A stretch of DNA of 61,212 nucleotides, from positions 1 through 61,212 of the forward strand of contig JALERC010000009.1 of NCBI GenBank assembly GCA_022763805.1, read 5' to 3'. The notes beneath the pieces are model-generated. The model was given only the letters and a program-made list of their open reading frames with translations. It made no database searches and was not told where the DNA came from. The position numbers and the translations under genes were made by a program. Positions 6,420 to 14,505 of this stretch are shown one piece after another (position 1 is the first letter of the stretch; every line of letters begins with the position of its first letter). The DNA is from Mycoplasmatota bacterium (GTDB lineage Bacteria > Bacillota_I > Bacilli_A > RF39 > UBA660).

Positions 6420-7073
6420 TTATATCAAATTTTTAGATATTTTTGTAATAATATCACTATCGTATTTTTTTATTTTTTCTATAGTATTACTTTCTACTGG
6501 AAGACCTAATAATATTTTTTTGTAATCCTCATAAGTACATTTTTTAACTATTTTATTATATTTATCAATTCTATCTATATCTTTATAAAATTCTTTTAAT
6601 AAACTTTCACCAGAATTATTGTAATATCTTGTAATTTCCTTTACTATTTCATTTTTATTATTAATATTTAAATAATTCATAGCATTAATTTTTCCTTCAA
6701 CAATAGCATTATATTCGGTTACAAATTTATAGTACTCAAGTAAGTATAAAAAGTAACTATCTTTTTGTAGTTTAAAAGCATACTTAAATAATTCTTTTTC
6801 AGGAGAATTAAATATATTATGGCTAATTTTTGATTGTTTAACATGTGTTAATTCATGATAGATAAAGTATATTATGTCATTATATTTATATTTTGGATTT
6901 CTTGCTCTTTCATAATTGAATAATATAATTTTATTATTTGAGTTATATCCAGCAATATAAGGAACTTTCTGTTCACTGTTATTTATAAATTTAATATCTT
7001 TTAGATAATTTTTTAAATCATTATTATATATATAATCACTAGCTATATCTATAATTATTTTTTCATATTTCAT
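6420..7073 (-). CDS. HExxH zincin-like protein, tandem paralog 4
   Basis: 217 aa with 'YHELTHVKQSKI', 'EYNAIVEGKINAMNYL' and 'CTYEDYKKILLGLP'. No signal peptide. 4-nt start/stop overlap with paralog 3. Confidence 0.7.
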   Translation of the reverse strand: MKYEKIIIDIASDYIYNNDLKNYLKDIKFINNSEQKVPYIAGYNSNNKIILFNYERARNPKYKYNDIIYFIYHELTHVKQSKISHNIFNSPEKELFKYAFKLQKDSYFLYLLEYYKFVTEYNAIVEGKINAMNYLNINNKNEIVKEITRYYNNSGESLLKEFYKDIDRIDKYNKIVKKCTYEDYKKILLGLPVESNTIEKIKKYDSDIITKISKNLI

Positions 7074-7711
7074 ATTGACCTCTTAATTTCATTGTAGTAA
7101 TTTTTATCTTTTATTATAATTTTATTATGTGTTTCTTTATTTATATTAAGACCTAATAATAATTTTTTTGAATCATCATATTTACATTTTTCATTTATTT
7201 TTTTATAAATATTTAACGCATTTAAATCTTTATAAAAGTCATATAATAAAGACCTATTATTATGTGGATAATAGTATAAAATATTATTATATATTTCATT
7301 TAAAATATTTTCCTTAGTATATTCCATAGTATTAATTTTTCCTTCGATTGTTGCATTATATTCTGATAAAAATTTTTCATAATTTTCTATGTAATAATAA
7401 TAATATTCTTTAAAAACTTGTTCATCATATCTTAATAAAGTTTTTTCTATACTCGGTATAAGATTATTTAATATTTTATTTTGTTTAACATGAACTAGTT
7501 CATGATACATAAAATAAATTATATTTATATAATTATTTTCTTTTAATGCTTTTTCTAAATTATATAGTATTATTTTACTTTCAAAATTATATCCTGCAAT
7601 ATATGGTATAGTTTTATTATTATCATTTATAAAAATAATATCTTTGATGTATTTCTTTAAATTATTTTTATTAATATAATCGTTAGCAATACTTAATAAT
7701 TCATTTTTCAT
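7070..7711 (-). CDS. HExxH zincin-like protein, tandem paralog 3
   Basis: 213 aa with 'YHELVHVKQNKI', 'EYNATIEGKINTMEY' and 'CKYDDSKKLLLGL'. 4-nt overlaps on both sides. Confidence 0.7.
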   Translation of the reverse strand: MKNELLSIANDYINKNNLKKYIKDIIFINDNNKTIPYIAGYNFESKIILYNLEKALKENNYINIIYFMYHELVHVKQNKILNNLIPSIEKTLLRYDEQVFKEYYYYYIENYEKFLSEYNATIEGKINTMEYTKENILNEIYNNILYYYPHNNRSLLYDFYKDLNALNIYKKINEKCKYDDSKKLLLGLNINKETHNKIIIKDKNYYNEIKRSI

Positions 7712-8346
7712 ATATTTTTACTCACGTAATATAAAGTATTAGGGTCATATTCTTTTATTTTTATTTTAGTATTTTCTTCTATTAGTAAACCTAATAATAT
7801 TTTTTTTGAATCTTCATAATTACATTCTTTTATTATGTTTTTAAGTATTAATAAATCATTTTTATCTTTGTAAATTTTAAACAATGATTCATTATCATAA
7901 TAGAAATTAATGTTATCATAAATTGAATCAGATAAATCATAATCGCTATTATTCATAGCGTTAATACAAGATTCTATTCTAGCATTATATTCAATAACAA
8001 ATTTATCATGATTTTTCATATAATATGTATAATCATTCTCAACTAAGTTAAAGTCATATTCATATAATTTTTTTTCTGGATTATTTTCTTCTATTCTAAT
8101 TTTATTTTGTTTAACATGTGTTAGTTCATGATACATTAATATCTTAGAATTTAACGCATATAACTCATCTTTATTTATTCTATCAAAATTAAATTCTATA
8201 AATTTATCTTCAAAATTATAAAATGCTATATAATTTTTATTTAATATTGTATTTTTTTCATTAACAAATCTTATTTCTTTTAAATAGTTATTCAAATTAT
8301 GTTTTTTAACATACTCTAAAGCTATATCGTATAATTCATTTATCAT
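7708..8346 (-). CDS. HExxH zincin-like protein, tandem paralog 2
   Basis: 212 aa with 'YHELTHVKQNKI', 'EYNARIESCINAMN' and 'CNYEDSKKILLGL'. GGAGG SD. Confidence 0.7.
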   Translation of the reverse strand: MINELYDIALEYVKKHNLNNYLKEIRFVNEKNTILNKNYIAFYNFEDKFIEFNFDRINKDELYALNSKILMYHELTHVKQNKIRIEENNPEKKLYEYDFNLVENDYTYYMKNHDKFVIEYNARIESCINAMNNSDYDLSDSIYDNINFYYDNESLFKIYKDKNDLLILKNIIKECNYEDSKKILLGLLIEENTKIKIKEYDPNTLYYVSKNI

Positions 8347-8354
8347 AAGTCCTC

Positions 8355-9014
8355 CTATAATACATATTTTTTTATATCATTATATATTGGATTATCGTTT
8401 GTTAAAATTTTTTTATATGTATTTTTTTCTATTGGTAAACCTAATAATAATTTTTTTGTTTCGTCATAATTACATTCAGAAGTTATTTCATAAAATTTTT
8501 TAAGTTTATGTCTTGCCTTATATAATTCATATAATTTATTTTGTTCATAATCAACATAATAATTATTTATATGATTGTATAAACAATTATTCAATTCAAT
8601 ATTTAAATAATTGCACGTATTTATAATTCCTTCAATATCTGCATTATATTCTATACTCATACAATTATAATATAATTCGTATATTTTATGTTGCCAATTT
8701 ACTAAATTATATTCATAATCATATAATTGTTTTTCTATTGTAAAGATATTTTCTTTTCTAATTTTATTTTGTTTAACATGTGTTAATTCATGATACATAT
8801 AATATACTAAATCTAAAAATTGATCATAACTTTTAAGTGCACTTTCTAAATTATAAAATATTTGTCTAGTTTTACTAGAGTATGATGCTACTACATATTC
8901 TGGAAGTATTGTATTTTGACTCTTTAAAAATTTTATATCCTCTATATAATTTTCTAAATTATTTTTTTTTATATAATTGTTTGCAATACTTAATAATTCA
9001 TTTTGATAATTCAT
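8355..9014 (-). CDS. HExxH zincin-like protein, tandem paralog 1
   Basis: 219 aa with 'YHELTHVKQNKI', 'EYNADIEGIINTCNYL' and 'CNYDETKKLLLGLP'. GAGGTGA SD. Confidence 0.7.
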   Translation of the reverse strand: MNYQNELLSIANNYIKKNNLENYIEDIKFLKSQNTILPEYVVASYSSKTRQIFYNLESALKSYDQFLDLVYYMYHELTHVKQNKIRKENIFTIEKQLYDYEYNLVNWQHKIYELYYNCMSIEYNADIEGIINTCNYLNIELNNCLYNHINNYYVDYEQNKLYELYKARHKLKKFYEITSECNYDETKKLLLGLPIEKNTYKKILTNDNPIYNDIKKYVL

Positions 9015-9242: not shown

Positions 9243-9275
9243 AATAATAAAAAAAGTATAATTATTATACTTTTT
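9243..9275 (-). terminator. rho-independent terminator ending the sigE-linked operon
   Basis: 11-bp AT-rich stem AAAAAGTATAA/TTATACTTTTT (9251..9261 / 9265..9275) with loop TTA. It overlaps the stop codon and is followed on the minus strand by a T-rich run. Confidence 0.5.
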
Positions 9276-9849
9276 TGTACATATCTTCAAATTCGTTTTC
9301 TATTTCATTTACTATTGCTTTATATTTTTCATAGAATTTTTCTGGTTTATTATTAGAGTTTATTGTTAAATGTTTTAAATCATCAATTAAATAAAGTATT
9401 GTAATTGCTTTTTGTCTTATAGTATTATTATTACCATATTTATATATTTGGAATATATCATCATATTCAACTCTTAATAATTGATATAATTCTAATTCAT
9501 CATAATAAGTTTCAATGCATGCTATAGCATTATCTTCAGAATACTTTGTTTCCATTAAATCACAATATTTATTTGTTAAATTATCTTTTTTAATTGATGT
9601 TATTTGTTCAATATACTCTCTTGTAATTTTTTTATCTTTAGCACGTTTCCAAACTTTATATTCATTTTCTAAGGCCTCCATATAATAAAATGATAAACCT
9701 TTTAATTTATAAAATATCATGTCATTATAATCAGGATGATAAGGAACATCTTTATATGATTTATATTGTGTTTTATATAAAATTATTGAATATCCAGAAA
9801 TAGCTAAGGCTATAAGTGTTATTAATACTGGTAATATGTATTTTTTCAT
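9265..9849 (-). CDS. membrane-anchored hypothetical protein
   Basis: 194 aa with N-terminal 'MKKYILPVLITLIALAISGYSIILY' anchor followed by a helical, charged ectodomain. 4-nt overlap with the upstream ORF. Confidence 0.5.
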   Translation of the reverse strand: MKKYILPVLITLIALAISGYSIILYKTQYKSYKDVPYHPDYNDMIFYKLKGLSFYYMEALENEYKVWKRAKDKKITREYIEQITSIKKDNLTNKYCDLMETKYSEDNAIACIETYYDELELYQLLRVEYDDIFQIYKYGNNNTIRQKAITILYLIDDLKHLTINSNNKPEKFYEKYKAIVNEIENEFEDMYKKV

Positions 9850-10286
9850 TTTATCACCTTTTCTAATTCTTGTTCGTGCTTAATAGATCTTTTATATAGT
9901 TTATCTAATTGTTTTTTAAATGTTTCTTGATCATTTCCTATTAATTCTTTTAATTCGTATAATTCATATAAATCATTTATTAATAATGAAGCCTTTACAG
10001 AAAAAGCATCTTCTTTTCTTTTCCCAACATAGTATGCTAATTCATCAATATTATATTTAGCATATTTTAAATATAATCTAGCATTATCATCATTACCTTT
10101 TCCCCAGTTTAATGATTCTTTTTCTAATGCGTTATATAATACGCCTTGTGTTCCTTTTATCATATAGACTAAATCTCTATCATTTTCCATTTTGTTATAG
10201 TTTTTAATATTAACTTTTTTATTTACTAAATAAAATAGTAGTAATGATAATATTAATAATATAATTGGTAAAATATATTTCTTCAT
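9846..10286 (-). CDS. membrane-anchored hypothetical protein
   Basis: 146 aa. Its N-terminal 'MKKYILPIILLILSLLLFYLV' is nearly identical in the first 7 residues to the next ORF. Confidence 0.5.
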   Translation of the reverse strand: MKKYILPIILLILSLLLFYLVNKKVNIKNYNKMENDRDLVYMIKGTQGVLYNALEKESLNWGKGNDDNARLYLKYAKYNIDELAYYVGKRKEDAFSVKASLLINDLYELYELKELIGNDQETFKKQLDKLYKRSIKHEQELEKVIK

Positions 10287-10296
10287 AAATTCTCTC

Positions 10297-10812
10297 CTAA
10301 TAATAATATTTTTCTGGTATATTTAATTTCCCATATATTACATTTATTTTTTTTACTGTTTGATCATAATATTGTTTATAGTCTTTAAATGATGTTGGTT
10401 CATACATCAATAAATAATAAACTTCTGTATATAATTCACTTAATAATTCTTTTTCTAATCCTTCCTCTAATGATTCATAATACTCATTAAATTTATCAGA
10501 TTCCTTGTTTGTGTCATCAATTATTCCGTTTTTCTTATTAGCTTCTATAATACATTTTGTAAGATTATTAATCGTAACATTTTTATCGTATTCCTTACAA
10601 CTTTTAATATTAATATCTTTATACATTAACTGTTTGTTAATTTTTTGTGTTGACGAACCAAGCATTTGATATGCTTTGTAATAATAATCTGCTTCCCTCA
10701 TCATTGTTTTAATTGGTTTAATTATTTCATGATGTTTAAAATTATTAATATTAATAAAAAACAATATAAAAATTAATACTATGGGTATAATTAAATATTT
10801 TATATATTTCAT
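10297..10812 (-). CDS. membrane-anchored hypothetical protein
   Basis: 171 aa with N-terminal 'MKYIKYLIIPIVLIFILFFI' anchor. Lies directly downstream of the sigma gene. Confidence 0.5.
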   Translation of the reverse strand: MKYIKYLIIPIVLIFILFFININNFKHHEIIKPIKTMMREADYYYKAYQMLGSSTQKINKQLMYKDINIKSCKEYDKNVTINNLTKCIIEANKKNGIIDDTNKESDKFNEYYESLEEGLEKELLSELYTEVYYLLMYEPTSFKDYKQYYDQTVKKINVIYGKLNIPEKYYY

Positions 10813-10866: not shown

Positions 10867-11514
10867 TTACTTTGATAAACTTTTAAGTCTTTTAATTACT
10901 TTTTTTTCTATTCTAGAAATATATGATTGGCTTATTCCTAATTTTTCTGCTACTTCTTTTTGAGTATATTCTAAACTATTATATAATCCATATCTTAAAA
11001 TCATTATTAACTTATCTCTTTCTTTTAATTTATCCAATTCTTTGTACAATAATTTTTCTAATTCTTTATCTTCAATTTTTTTTGTTACATTGTCTTTTTC
11101 TGTTCCTAGTATATCTTCTAGATGTAATTCATTTCCTTCTTGATCATAGCTTAATGAATCTTCAAAACTAATTTCTGTTCTTCTTTTTTTATTTTTTCTT
11201 AAATACATTAGTATTTCATTATCTATACATCGTGATGCATATGTTGCTAATTTAATATTTTTATCTAATTTGTAAGTATTAACACCTTTAATAAGTCCAA
11301 TAGTACCTATACTTACTAAATCTTCTAAGTCTATCATAGTATTATCATATTTTTTTGATAAAAATACTACTAATCTTAAATTGTGTTCTATAAGTATTTC
11401 TCTTGCTATTTTATCACCTTTCATACTTAATTGAACATATTTTATTTCATCCTCTTTTGTCAATGGTTCTGGTAGTTTATCAAGACTTCCTACAAAGTAA
11501 ATTGTATTTGTCAT
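10867..11514 (-). CDS. sigE: sporulation sigma factor, SigE-like (SigE/SigK family), apparently without pro-sequence
   Basis: 215 aa with 'NLRLVVFLSKKY', 'SIGTIGLIKGV', 'KLATYASRCIDNEILMYLR' and 'GISQSYISRIEKK'. ATGA overlap with the spoIIGA-like gene and GGAGGG SD. An in-frame stop 14 codons upstream leaves no canonical upstream start. Confidence 0.8.
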   Translation of the reverse strand: MTNTIYFVGSLDKLPEPLTKEDEIKYVQLSMKGDKIAREILIEHNLRLVVFLSKKYDNTMIDLEDLVSIGTIGLIKGVNTYKLDKNIKLATYASRCIDNEILMYLRKNKKRRTEISFEDSLSYDQEGNELHLEDILGTEKDNVTKKIEDKELEKLLYKELDKLKERDKLIMILRYGLYNSLEYTQKEVAEKLGISQSYISRIEKKVIKRLKSLSK

Positions 11515-12095
11515 ATTCCCTCCATTATATTTGGATTTAATAACATATCTACATCATTTTCTATAATCCCTAGTAAAACTTTTTTTACAATTCTCCCATC
11601 TAGTATTATATAGTCTGGCTTTATTACTTTTAATAGTCCAATATTATCTATAGTTTTGTATGGTACATAGAAAAATTTATTAATTTCTATATATTTTTTA
11701 TTTATTAATACTATTGGAATATTATTATATTGTAATGTATTACCAGTATCTAAATATCCTTTAACTATAATATATTTTTTGTTGTATTTTATTATTACAT
11801 TATAATATAGTTTTTTTCGAGTATTTATTATGTATAGTAATAATACTAGAGGAATACTATTTATTCCTTTATAGAGTCCTAAAATGGTTAAATAACTAAT
11901 GATACTTCTAAAACTTTTAAATGTTACTATAAGCATTGCAATATCAAATATATACTTAATAAATATTCGATAACTTCCTATTACACTACCAAGTAATATA
12001 TACTTAAATTTAACCTTACAATTTAATGTATATGAAATTACTTTCAATATTATTACATTAAATATTAAGTTTTTTAAAATTATCAAAAGCATCAC
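11511..12095 (-). CDS. spoIIGA: SpoIIGA-like membrane aspartic protease (short form)
   Basis: 194 aa with about three N-terminal TM helices and then 'KGYLDTGNTL' (DTG aspartic-protease motif). Position between ftsZ and sigE matches Bacillus. The start is uncertain: GTG 12095, ATG 12092 and TTG 12086 are all in frame. Confidence 0.62.
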   Translation of the reverse strand: MMLLIILKNLIFNVIILKVISYTLNCKVKFKYILLGSVIGSYRIFIKYIFDIAMLIVTFKSFRSIISYLTILGLYKGINSIPLVLLLYIINTRKKLYYNVIIKYNKKYIIVKGYLDTGNTLQYNNIPIVLINKKYIEINKFFYVPYKTIDNIGLLKVIKPDYIILDGRIVKKVLLGIIENDVDMLLNPNIMEGI

Positions 12096-12102
12096 CTATT
12101 TT

Positions 12103-12136
12103 ATTATAAAAAAAAGACACAGAAATCTGTGTCGAA
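12103..12136 (-). promoter_or_regulatory. candidate Spo0A-type spoIIG promoter (0A box, 21-nt spacer, TATAAT)
   Basis: A perfect TGTCGAA heptamer lies on the plus strand at 12130..12136, which reads TTCGACA on the gene strand. It is followed by a 21-nt spacer and TATAAT (12108..12103). AGGTGAT and the start codon follow about 5 nt later. It overlaps the ftsZ terminator stem. Confidence 0.3.
12107..12133 (-). terminator. rho-independent terminator after ftsZ
   Basis: Stem GACACAG/CTGTGTC with a 4-nt loop, then 8 T on the minus strand. Confidence 0.7.
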
Positions 12137-12143
12137 ATAAGTC

Positions 12144-13226
12144 CTAGAAACCTCTTTTTCTTAAACTTGAGAAAAAATCTGAATCATCATCATCATTTGT
12201 TTCTGGTTCTTCTTCTAATGTTTCAATAACATCTGGTTGTGGATATGTACGACGTTGTTGTTGAGCTTGTTTCTTTTGTTCATCTTCAAAACCAGTCGCA
12301 ATTACAGTAACAATTATTTCATCATTTAAATTTTCATTAATAACTGCACCAAAAATTGTATTGATATCTGTATTTGCACTTGTTCTAATAACTTCTGCTG
12401 CTTCTTCAACTTCAAATAATGTAAGATTAGAACCACCTGTAACATTTATAATAGCATCAGTAGCACCATTAATACTAGTTTCTAAAAGTGGACTTGATAC
12501 AGCTTGACGAGCAGCTTCTGTTGCTCTTCCTTCACCTACACCAATACCAATTCCGATAAGTGCATTTCCTCTTTTTTCCATTACTGTTTTAACATCTGCA
12601 AAGTCTAAGTTGATTAACCCAGCTACAGCGATAAGATCTGAAATTGATTGAACCCCTCTTCTAAGAACGTTATCAACTTCTTTAAATGATTCTAATAAAG
12701 GTGTTGTTTTATCGATAATATCTCTTAATCTATCATTTGGTATAACAATTAAAGTATCAACATGTTTTTTTAATTCAGCAAGACCAGCATTTGCATGTTC
12801 CATTCTCTTTCTACCCTCAAATGAGAAAGGTTTAGTAACAATACCAACAGTTAAGGCACCCATTTGTTGTGCAATATCAGCGATAACTGGAGCAGCACCT
12901 GTTCCAGTACCACCACCCATACCACAAGTAACGAATACCATGTCAGCTCCCTCTAAAGCTTTTTCAATTTCCGCTTTACTTTCGATAGCTGCTTCTTTAC
13001 CAATTGTTGGGTTAGCACCTGCACCAAGACCATTAGTTAATTTCTCACCAATTTGGATTTTTACTGCTGCTTTTGAATTATTTAATACTTGAAGATCAGT
13101 ATTTGCTACTATGAATTCTACACCTTGTACACCAGATTCTATCATACGATTTACAGCGTTATTTCCGCCTCCACCTACACCTATAACCTTTATTTTTGCT
13201 AATTGATCCATTTCTAAACCAAACAT
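12144..13226 (-). CDS. ftsZ: cell division protein FtsZ
   Basis: 360 aa with '[13 protein letters not shown]' and tubulin signature '[10 protein letters not shown]'. Acidic C-terminal tail. Confidence 0.97.
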
Positions 13227-13248: not shown

Positions 13249-14505
13249 CTATTCTCCAAAAAAGTAACCAACAACTTTATTTAACATTGAGTCACTTGAA
13301 ATATTAGCTGTGTTTTTGTTAACTGATGATAAGTTATCTTGATCCTCTTCACTTATCATCGAATATTCTTTTCCTTTAAGTTTTAACTTATTAATAAAAT
13401 AAATAATGTTACCTACCGCTGCTGAGTTTTGATTGTTTCTTAGTCCTACCATTGTAACACTACCAACACTTGCTTTTTTCCCTAGTTTATCTTTAATAAG
13501 CATATCAAAACGATAAGCATTAGTAGCCCCACCAGTAAACATTACATAATCTAATTGTTTTCCTGATAAAGACGTGATTTCCTTAACAATTAATTCAAGT
13601 AATTGACAATATCTCTTACTTACTAATGCTGAAACTTCAGCTTGATTAATTCTAATTTTTTTAGAATCTTTATTAACCACATCGTAAAAATCATTTTTAC
13701 TTGCATATTTAGTATGACAAACAGCAAATCTTTCTTTTACGATTCTAGCTTTATCTAAAGTTAAATTATAGGCTTTAGCAATATTATCATCAATTGCAGA
13801 ACTTCCTATAGGAATAATACTATTCTTTACGATTGTTCCTTTATTATATAGCGCAACATTAATTGTTTCAGCACCAATATTAACAATAGAACCAACTTGA
13901 GAATCCATTTCTCTTGTTTTTAAAGCATTTATAGTTCCTATACTATTAATCATTATATCTACTACTTCTATCCCCATTGATTCAATAACTGAAAGTACTG
14001 AAATAATGTTTTTCTTTGGAGTAGAAACCATTATAGCTCTACTAGCTAATTTACTAGCTTTATGGCCTAATGGATTTTGCATTCCTTCTGCATCATCCAA
14101 TCTAAAATCAATTGGGATAATAGTAACCATTTCTTTTTCAGGCGTAATTTTAGCCTTCATAGAAGATTGTAAAACCTTAACTATGTCATCACTACTTACT
14201 ACATTGTTTTCATTAATAATTTTTACCTCGCCCTTTATAAATGTGAATTCTGCATTATTAGCTGGAACTGAAGCAATTACTTTATTAATTTTAATACCAA
14301 GTAAACTTTCAATTTCTTCCATAGCTTCTTTAATTGAAGCTTGCGCATCGTCCGCATTAACAATTAATCCCTTTTTTATTCCTTTAGACTTTACAGAAGA
14401 TGTCGCCAATAAATTTAATTTGTTATTATGTAATTCACAAACAACTACTTTGATACTATCTGATCCAATATCGATGCTTGTATATACGTTTTTCAATAAC
14501 ATCAT
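13249..14505 (-). CDS. ftsA: cell division protein FtsA
   Basis: 418 aa with actin-like 'SIDIGSDSIKVVV' and 'VNIGAETINVALY'. Lies upstream of ftsZ. Confidence 0.93.
   Translation of the reverse strand: MMLLKNVYTSIDIGSDSIKVVVCELHNNKLNLLATSSVKSKGIKKGLIVNADDAQASIKEAMEEIESLLGIKINKVIASVPANNAEFTFIKGEVKIINENNVVSSDDIVKVLQSSMKAKITPEKEMVTIIPIDFRLDDAEGMQNPLGHKASKLASRAIMVSTPKKNIISVLSVIESMGIEVVDIMINSIGTINALKTREMDSQVGSIVNIGAETINVALYNKGTIVKNSIIPIGSSAIDDNIAKAYNLTLDKARIVKERFAVCHTKYASKNDFYDVVNKDSKKIRINQAEVSALVSKRYCQLLELIVKEITSLSGKQLDYVMFTGGATNAYRFDMLIKDKLGKKASVGSVTMVGLRNNQNSAAVGNIIYFINKLKLKGKEYSMISEEDQDNLSSVNKNTANISSDSMLNKVVGYFFGE

Follow-up and report, generated by a model that had tools for sequence, protein, structure and literature searches.

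A natural sigma-E without its leader, next to a cut-down SpoIIGA, in a spoIIR-negative genus of gut Bacilli

The SpoIIR-SpoIIGA-pro-sigma-E pathway is the textbook case of crisscross signalling that links forespore and mother cell. The spoIIGA-sigE locus analyzed here lies in a 61,212-nt stretch of DNA from an uncultured Mycoplasmatota bacterium (assembly GCA_022763805.1, contig JALERC010000009.1), referred to below as the window. In B. subtilis, 27 residues are removed from SigE by cleavage (PMC13174948). SigK of C. difficile is naturally made without a pro-sequence and has escaped forespore-dependent cleavage (PMC5025042). A reduced but functional set of sporulation genes, lacking spoIIAB and spoIIE, was predicted for RF39 in a 2024 survey of RF39, RFN20 and ML615J-28, which mentions neither spoIIR nor the leader (PMC10868615). 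No natural leaderless sigma-E was found in full-text literature searches, and by analogy the closest natural precedent is C. difficile SigK. The comparisons described here suggest that in the ancestor of the genus represented by the window the SpoIIR-SpoIIGA-pro-sigma-E checkpoint was probably dismantled, with sigma-E being made essentially mature and the retropepsin domain of SpoIIGA no longer acting as a signal-gated switch.

The locus resembles B. subtilis spoIIG in several respects. An orthologous spoIIGA-sigE pair follows ftsA-ftsZ, SpoIIGA has a DTG-containing, retropepsin-like C-terminal domain, and a 0A-box-like -35 element is followed by an over-long spacer (21 nt here, 22 bp in B. 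subtilis). It differs in having no leader (27 residues in B. subtilis, 15-21 in the family) and no spoIIR, in the absence from SpoIIGA of approximately 60-100 residues of the five-helix membrane domain together with the equivalent of D6, and in the position of sigG, which is not adjacent to sigE. As in C. difficile, a mother-cell sigma factor naturally lacks its inhibitory leader, and timing would be left to controls at the level of transcription. In C. difficile, however, it is the late SigK/SpoIVFB pathway that is affected, with timing set by regulated excision of the skin element, whereas here it is the early SigE; the gene for the cognate protease is kept in cut-down form, and SigK still has a leader. 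The organism also matches the RF39 survey, which dealt with uncultured gut Bacilli of small genome size in which spoIIAB was not detectable and spoIIGA, spoIIP and spoIID were kept (PMC10868615). That survey was made at the level of family and order, whereas the present loss is confined to a single genus.

The assembly comprises 1.47 Mb in 102 contigs and is 95% complete; the window (contig C5) has a G+C content of about 23%. The relatives used for comparison are metagenome-assembled genomes (MAGs) from animal and human gut, labelled as Bacilli, Tenericutes, Erysipelotrichaceae, CAG:884 or UBA660. The genus was sampled by three species-level genomes (95, 91 and 84% complete), and strain-level variation was assessed in 11 strains of the window's species. 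Reading along the minus strand, the locus contains the following features and continues into three small membrane-anchored open reading frames (ORFs).

13249-14505, minus strand: ftsA
12144-13226, minus strand: ftsZ
11511-12095, minus strand: miniaturised spoIIGA, 191-194 aa depending on the start codon (GTG 12095, ATG 12092, TTG 12086), with an eroded anchor and an intact retropepsin-like C-terminal domain
11739-11750, minus strand: catalytic DTGN motif of SpoIIGA, its D and G invariant in 71 sequences
11554-11556, minus strand: in-frame TGA closing the sigE frame 14 codons upstream of the ATG
11518-11523, minus strand: Shine-Dalgarno sequence GGAGGG of sigE, within the 3' end of spoIIGA; the NGG(N/K)M arrangement is also found in relatives
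11500-11511, minus strand: codons 2-5 of sigE (TNTI), the site of the in-frame loss, where relatives have 12-16 further codons (amphipathic helix)
10867-11514, minus strand: sigE orthologue, 215 aa, with SigE equivalogs as its top NCBIfam matches and the gene order ftsA-ftsZ-spoIIGA-sigE

The 215-aa sigma protein begins with MTNTIYFVGSLDKLPEPLTKEDE and carries sigma-70 regions 2 and 4. Against NCBIfam it was matched more strongly by the SigE models (298.4 and 284.9 bits) than by the SigK models (256.5 and 247.5 bits), although both SigE scores are below the curated cut-offs (298.4 vs 339 for NF006158; 284.9 vs 348.6 for TIGR02835). In the SigE alignments the first matched model position is 25 of 241 and 18 of 234; the window's protein has nothing that corresponds to the leader portion of the models, and the missing leader accounts in part for the shortfall. 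sigE lies directly 3' of spoIIGA, the two being translationally coupled through overlapping ATGA, and relatives share the order ftsA-ftsZ-spoIIGA-sigE. A search of the organism's own genome with the SigE models returned only two SigE/SigK-type genes and no second pro-SigE. The other gene, on contig C43, encodes 231 aa starting with MMLKRLFDFLFKDLSIFSCAYSNNIFPSPLS; because it is best matched as SigK (298.7 bits vs 228 for SigE) and aligns from model position 1-4, it is a normal pro-SigK with leader. Relatives of the window's gene (P0049, P0050, P0054, P0114) carry the NCBI name 'sporulation sigma factor SigK'. This naming arises because the SigK subfamily cut-off of 252 is just passed and the SigE cut-off is missed, and it looks like a systematic misannotation in this clade.

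Upstream of the conserved [FY][FY]VGS..LPxPL block (YFVGS..LPEPL in the window), only the five residues MTNTI are present. Loci from other species were collected in a scan of a genome collection; 80 were obtained, and in all 67 that could be evaluated, from about as many other genera, the start codon lies 15-21 codons upstream of the block. The additional N-terminal residues of the relatives are basic, hydrophobic and amphipathic, as in MIKKIINFIISLFKSNV, MFHKILNFFIKIFNVENNI and MLKKIWNYLKQLLWDEYNL. No such amphipathic pro-sequence (15-21 aa in the family, 27 aa in B. subtilis) is present in the window's sigma factor. The frame upstream of sigE reads ...RK*CRYVIKSKYNGGN-M, and no ATG, GTG or TTG occurs between the TGA and the sigE ATG. 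Three further species also have a short form, starting MKTTTTI (217 aa), MTNNNI (216 aa) and MENNNI (216 aa), with the upstream frame closed 24, 5 and 5 codons away, by TAA in the last two. Two of these three are the other two species-level genomes of the same genus in GTDB. In a tree built from FtsZ and SigE the four short forms make up one clade with a support of 1.0, and a single ancestral deletion is therefore sufficient. Start codon, Shine-Dalgarno sequence and ATGA/TAATG junction to spoIIGA occupy exactly the positions they have in relatives, and what is gone is the 12-16 codons that follow the ATG there. By this alignment the leader is lost through a clean in-frame deletion that left 5-7 linker residues. 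The window's sigma factor presumably starts about 5-6 residues before the canonical cleavage site, as judged from model coordinates and the B. subtilis sequence. All four species retain a stub of polar linker residues and I-[FY] immediately before the site that corresponds to the B. subtilis cleavage position. Identity among the four SigE proteins is 81-90%, and no nonsynonymous polymorphism was seen in sigE among the 11 strains (ratio of nonsynonymous to synonymous polymorphism, pN/pS, 0).

The absence of a leader could in principle be an artefact, with a leader hidden by a frameshift, a miscalled start codon or recoding of TGA, or the gene could be a paralogue other than SigE. The NCBI name of the relatives, the missed SigE cut-offs (298 vs 339, 285 vs 349) and the identity of the window's upstream stop codon as TGA are in line with such explanations, which are nevertheless essentially refuted. 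The exact sigma protein of the window is indexed on 373 contigs and in 514 collection blocks; an identical protein on hundreds of independent contigs, together with the same state in three other species, excludes assembly error or chance. Read-through of the TGA, as under genetic code 4, yields nothing that resembles a leader, the sister species use TAA five codons upstream, and the end of SpoIIGA at the same alignment column as in relatives also opposes TGA recoding. The only other SigE/SigK-type gene in the genome is best matched as SigK and has a full leader, and the gene order is conserved. A first-pass annotation of this DNA, made from the sequence alone, had described the ORF as a SigE homologue that starts with MTNT and lacks a pro-sequence, with a TGA 14 codons upstream, no start codon in between and a GGAGGG Shine-Dalgarno sequence before the ATG, all of which is borne out. 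The two circumstances it named as overturning this description, a leader in a frameshifted or miscalled upstream segment and a true pro-SigE elsewhere in the genome, were not found: the former is at odds with the TAA of the sister species and the latter with the sole other gene being pro-SigK.

A 228-aa variant with a leader (P0045) was also observed; it is diverged up to about residue 62 and thereafter identical to the window's SigE. It comes from contigs of about 1.1 kb, which probably join metagenome sequence of two related species into a chimera, and it was not used as evidence.

SigF, SigG and pro-SigK were all found in the genome, and spoIIR was absent from all three genomes of the genus (no match to TIGR02837 at E<=0.1). 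Across the family, sampled as 121 genomes with one per genus, spoIIR is present in 106, with E values from 1e-30 to 1e-48. Thirteen of the 14 other spoIIR-negative genomes have no sigE or sigK and belong to asporogenous lineages, mostly with genomes of 0.5-1.2 Mb. In the 14th, which is 78% complete and encodes a normal pro-SigE (MLIKILRKLKRLFFKKNPI-YYVGS) as well as SpoIIGA at full length, spoIIR has probably only been missed in the assembly. In the relative G001 the gene order is rplI-dnaB-...-rlmH-spoIIR-...-fba-murA. In the window's genome a single contig carries the rlmH homologue (C46:101053-101505) and fba (from 101590) with 85 bp between them, and this synteny supports a true, clean loss of spoIIR. 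Failure to detect spoIIR as a result of assembly gaps was rejected on the basis of its absence from three genomes and the contiguity of the syntenic interval.

Within the family, genomes of 0.7-1.5 Mb from more than 100 genera carry spoIIR and would rank among the smallest with a sporulation programme. All spoIIR-positive family genomes tested also carry sigE and sigK. The programme is wholly lost in at least 13 sampled genera.

The ORF upstream of sigE scores 50.1 bits with the Pfam family Peptidase_U4 (PF03419; cut-off 28.4), and no second gene of this kind exists in the genome; its score with the NCBIfam equivalog TIGR02854 is below the cut-off (38.7 vs 209.55 bits). SpoIIGA is 194, 201, 191 and 159 aa long in the four short-sigE species as compared to 242-302 aa in relatives, and the DTG motif is found at about residue 80-125 rather than 160-215. 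The earlier description of a 194-aa, SpoIIGA-like ORF that keeps DTGN agrees with these data, at 191-194 aa depending on the start. Its 'short C-terminal domain' does not, because approximately 78 residues follow the DTG in the window as compared to approximately 87 in relatives, and the deficit of about 60-100 residues lies in the N-terminal membrane domain. In the alignment the deletions are located around helices 2-4 and differ in extent in each short-sigE species. A longer N-terminus has no room, because the start of spoIIGA is immediately preceded by the promoter and the ftsZ terminator.

A position of SpoIIGA was counted as conserved if at least 85% of 67 full-length proteins share it. 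Within the membrane domain, nearly all such positions have been deleted or substituted in the short forms, most of them in all four; among them are Y and D in the N-terminal motif MKIYxD (equivalent to D6), D in NFxFD, and the GG..Y block. None of the short forms has a five-helix membrane domain (about 170 aa) with these conserved residues, and about 95-115 aa are left N-terminal to the DTG. In the C-domain the conserved D, G, N, L, P, G and L are retained. In B. subtilis SpoIIGA, D6A was the only N-terminal substitution with a noticeable effect (PMC13174948).

The two domains also differ in their rates of change. At equal SigE divergence (0.80-0.85 identity), the membrane domains of the short forms are 0.32 identical vs 0.54±0.08 for pairs of full-length proteins, and the protease domains 0.40 vs 0.39±0.08. 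Among the 11 strains, spoIIGA has 14 synonymous and 8 nonsynonymous variant codons (pN/pS about 0.15), compared with pN/pS values of 0.03 for ftsZ and 0.20 for ftsA. An AlphaFold model of the mini-SpoIIGA, based on this alignment, has a mean predicted local distance difference test score (pLDDT) of 88.6, with about 94-97 in a beta-rich C-domain (residues 96-185). In a Foldseek search the predicted C-domain matched retroviral protease monomers across the whole 99-residue target (E about 1e-5; template modelling score about 0.6 on the target). A retropepsin-like C-domain for SpoIIGA was proposed by Imamura et al. 2008, as cited in PMC13174948. Null alleles were also observed. One of the 11 strains has a TTA-to-TAA change at codon 120 (L131:1923-2282), and in a separate SpoIIGA cluster (P0122) 27 residues including DTGN are deleted between two NKKYI repeats. 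A decaying pseudogene is not supported: rare null alleles exist, but the ORF is intact in four species, the rate of the C-domain is normal and pN/pS is about 0.15. By these measures the protease domain is held under purifying selection, and translational coupling would not by itself explain why DTGN and the fold are conserved.

These properties of SpoIIGA bear on a different explanation, in which the checkpoint is reduced rather than removed and the 5-7-residue stub is a minimal pro-peptide cut by the mini-SpoIIGA, either constitutively or in response to a signal unrelated to SpoIIR. Purifying selection on DTGN and on the whole retropepsin-like domain at a normal rate would be accounted for, as would the polar linker and the I-[FY] before the cleavage-site homologue in all four species and the retained spoIIGA-sigE overlap. 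We regard this explanation as unlikely, as the amphipathic helix, which by analogy with B. subtilis is expected to act as tether and inhibitor, is gone, spoIIR is lost, the conserved membrane-domain residues of SpoIIGA are lost, and spoIIGA nulls occur within the window's species (the codon-120 nonsense allele and the DTGN deletion described above). The first-pass annotation had left two options, a sigma factor active as made or a SpoIIGA-like protein with another substrate. The first of these is favoured by the loss of spoIIR and of the membrane-domain residues; the second may also apply, given the selection on the protease domain.

The rest of the sporulation gene set was located in the window's genome as follows (bit scores).

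Contig C69: Spo0A, 225 vs cut-off 200
Contig C31: SigH-like sigma factor, present
Contig C17: SpoIIAA-like protein followed by a 218-aa SigF, present
Contig C57: SigG, 337 bits
Contig C43: pro-SigK, present, leader kept
Contig C56: SpoIVA, 698 vs cut-off 460
Contig C46: SpoIID, 280 vs cut-off 235
Contig C1: GPR, adjoining SpoIIP, 275 vs cut-off 120
Contig C1: SpoIIP, 143.5 vs cut-off 123
Contig C17: SpoVAC, present
Contig C40: SpoVAD, 412 vs cut-off 411.8
Contig C94: candidate alpha/beta-type small acid-soluble spore protein, motif match only, no NCBIfam hit
Contig C82: M50 peptidase, possible SpoIVFB, Pfam 36.8 vs cut-off 27.2

The core set of an endospore former (Spo0A, the four compartment sigma factors, and genes for engulfment and the coat basement) is thus present and intact. 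SpoIVA is full-length in all three genomes of the genus (687-698 bits), similar to a relative with pro-SigE (702 bits), and it is absent from two asporogenous relatives. No SpoIIAB-sized match was found in any of 10 family genomes, and control of sigma-F may also be rewired family-wide. At C17:29-1482 (minus strand), a SpoIIAA-like STAS protein (101 aa) is followed by SigF (218 aa) and spoVAC, with no spoIIAB in between.

This gene set weighs on the possibility that sporulation was recently lost, in which case the loss of spoIIR would have broken the programme and left sigE, spoIIGA and the remaining spo genes to decay or to take on another use. In published comparisons spoIIR belongs to the core of all spore formers and is absent from a Spo0A-positive non-spore-former (PMC3533761). 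Loss has also been repeated within the family, with 13 of 121 sampled genomes lacking both sigE and spoIIR, and spoIIGA null alleles occur in some strains. Recent asporogeny nevertheless appears quite improbable. sigE is intact in four species at 81-90% SigE identity and without nonsynonymous polymorphism in the 11 strains, SpoIVA is full-length with scores as in the pro-SigE relative, and Spo0A, SpoIID, SpoIIP, GPR and SpoVAD are all above their curated cut-offs. The leader deletion is in frame, with the start codon and Shine-Dalgarno sequence kept, and looks compensatory rather than degenerative.

The region upstream of spoIIGA was compared with the B. subtilis spoIIG promoter, which is activated by Spo0A and has a 0A box over the -35 region and an over-long spacer of 22 bp. 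Two features were located here.

12103-12136, minus strand: candidate spoIIG-type promoter, with TTCGACA (12136-12130; 0A-box or -35-like), a 21-nt spacer and TATAAT (12108-12103); its function is putative
12116-12133, minus strand: intrinsic terminator hairpin of ftsZ (GACACAGA-tttc-TGTGTC and a T run) inside the promoter spacer; one found, 0.1 expected

An [A/T/C]GACA-N19-23-TATAAT-like arrangement precedes spoIIGA at 57 of 71 loci (0.8 expected from shuffles), and at 55 of these 57 the spacer is exactly 21 nt. The commonest -35-like boxes are AACGACA, AATGACA, ATCGACA and TTCGACA, the last being the reverse complement of the 0A-box core TGTCGAA. The N21 promoter is kept in all four short-sigE species. 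A generic sigma-70 promoter scan was uninformative in the AT-rich window (19 found, 17 expected). At many loci the ftsZ terminator hairpin is within the 21-nt promoter spacer. The -10 hexamer is only about 6 nt from the GGTGAT Shine-Dalgarno sequence of spoIIGA, and the leader of a spoIIGA transcript would therefore be extremely short.

Considered together, the signal, the inhibitory and tethering leader and the membrane part of the protease, which act jointly in B. subtilis, are lost in one clade in which the sigma-E-controlled machinery is at normal conservation. With the leader, spoIIR and the SpoIIGA membrane domain all lost, sigma-E would be synthesised essentially mature. The normal gate, in which sigma-F leads to SpoIIR, SpoIIR to SpoIIGA and SpoIIGA to cleavage of pro-sigma-E, would have been dismantled by an in-frame deletion of the 12-16 leader-helix codons and by the loss of spoIIR. 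The multi-pass membrane domain of SpoIIGA then eroded independently in each species to leave a short anchor. The data fit a loss of spoIIR with a compensating leader deletion after it, and they also fit the reverse order. Release of sigma-E from the membrane and its binding to core RNA polymerase would not depend on processing triggered by SpoIIR, and the timing and compartment bias of sigma-E would come mainly from transcription of the spoIIGA-sigE operon, for which the promoter is kept clade-wide. The retropepsin-like domain of SpoIIGA would probably act without a signal, trimming the 5-7-residue stub or cutting another substrate. Fujita and Losick are said to have found that Spo0A activity and spoIIG transcription in B. 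subtilis are biased toward the mother cell after septation. A stronger version, which we put forward only tentatively and hold to be somewhat doubtful, is that the genus sporulates without any sigma-F-to-sigma-E crisscross, leaderless sigE being set only by Spo0A-dependent transcription and the SpoIIGA retropepsin being freed for another, signal-independent function such as a new substrate or constitutive trimming.

Several points weigh against a dismantled checkpoint. All results are based on MAG sequences of an uncultured organism. The retained protease domain would be unexpected if processing were wholly obsolete, and the stub of 5-7 residues, with residues upstream of the cleavage site kept in four species, means that cleavage may still take place and may matter. 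Engineered leaderless sigma-E in B. subtilis (Haldenwang and Losick laboratories) was reportedly active, but sporulation was impaired, so that a compensating control would be expected here. Such constructs are said to start near the mature N-terminus, as does the natural protein, and are likewise expected to be active unprocessed; they differ in being laboratory constructs that lower sporulation, whereas the form described here is fixed in a natural clade that keeps its sporulation genes. Finally, published work counts spoIIR among the genes shared by all spore formers and has used its absence to mark asporogeny (PMC3533761).

Downstream of sigE, where sigG usually sits, are three small N-terminally anchored helical proteins of 171, 146 and 194 aa (9265-10812, minus strand). 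None of the three matches a Pfam or NCBIfam family, and for the 146- and 194-aa proteins the only homologues detected adjoin sigE within the short-sigE genus. For the 171-aa gene (orf171), pN/pS is about 0.73, and one strain (L127) lacks 149 nt of it. These fast-evolving proteins were considered as replacement regulators; no link was established. Just downstream of the sigE block are four tandem paralogues of 212-219 aa with 40-44% mutual identity (6420-9014, minus strand), and a fifth, more distant copy is present on contig C25.

If the checkpoint was dismantled as proposed, a forespore-to-mother-cell control thought to be universal in endospore formers would be dispensable in evolution; the leaderless SigK of C. 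difficile teaches the same lesson for the late checkpoint. The genus would also represent a natural experiment in which the membrane domain of SpoIIGA decays once SpoIIR is gone and the protease domain does not, and such decay would single out the part of SpoIIGA linked to SpoIIR signalling, a point of relevance to the current debate over where SpoIIR acts on SpoIIGA (PMC13174948). For annotation, a rule that makes spoIIR a requirement would wrongly class such genomes as non-sporulating. Should the crisscross-free version also be true, the genus would present a minimal natural wiring of the mother-cell programme, with the protease of SpoIIGA separated from the receiving of the signal.

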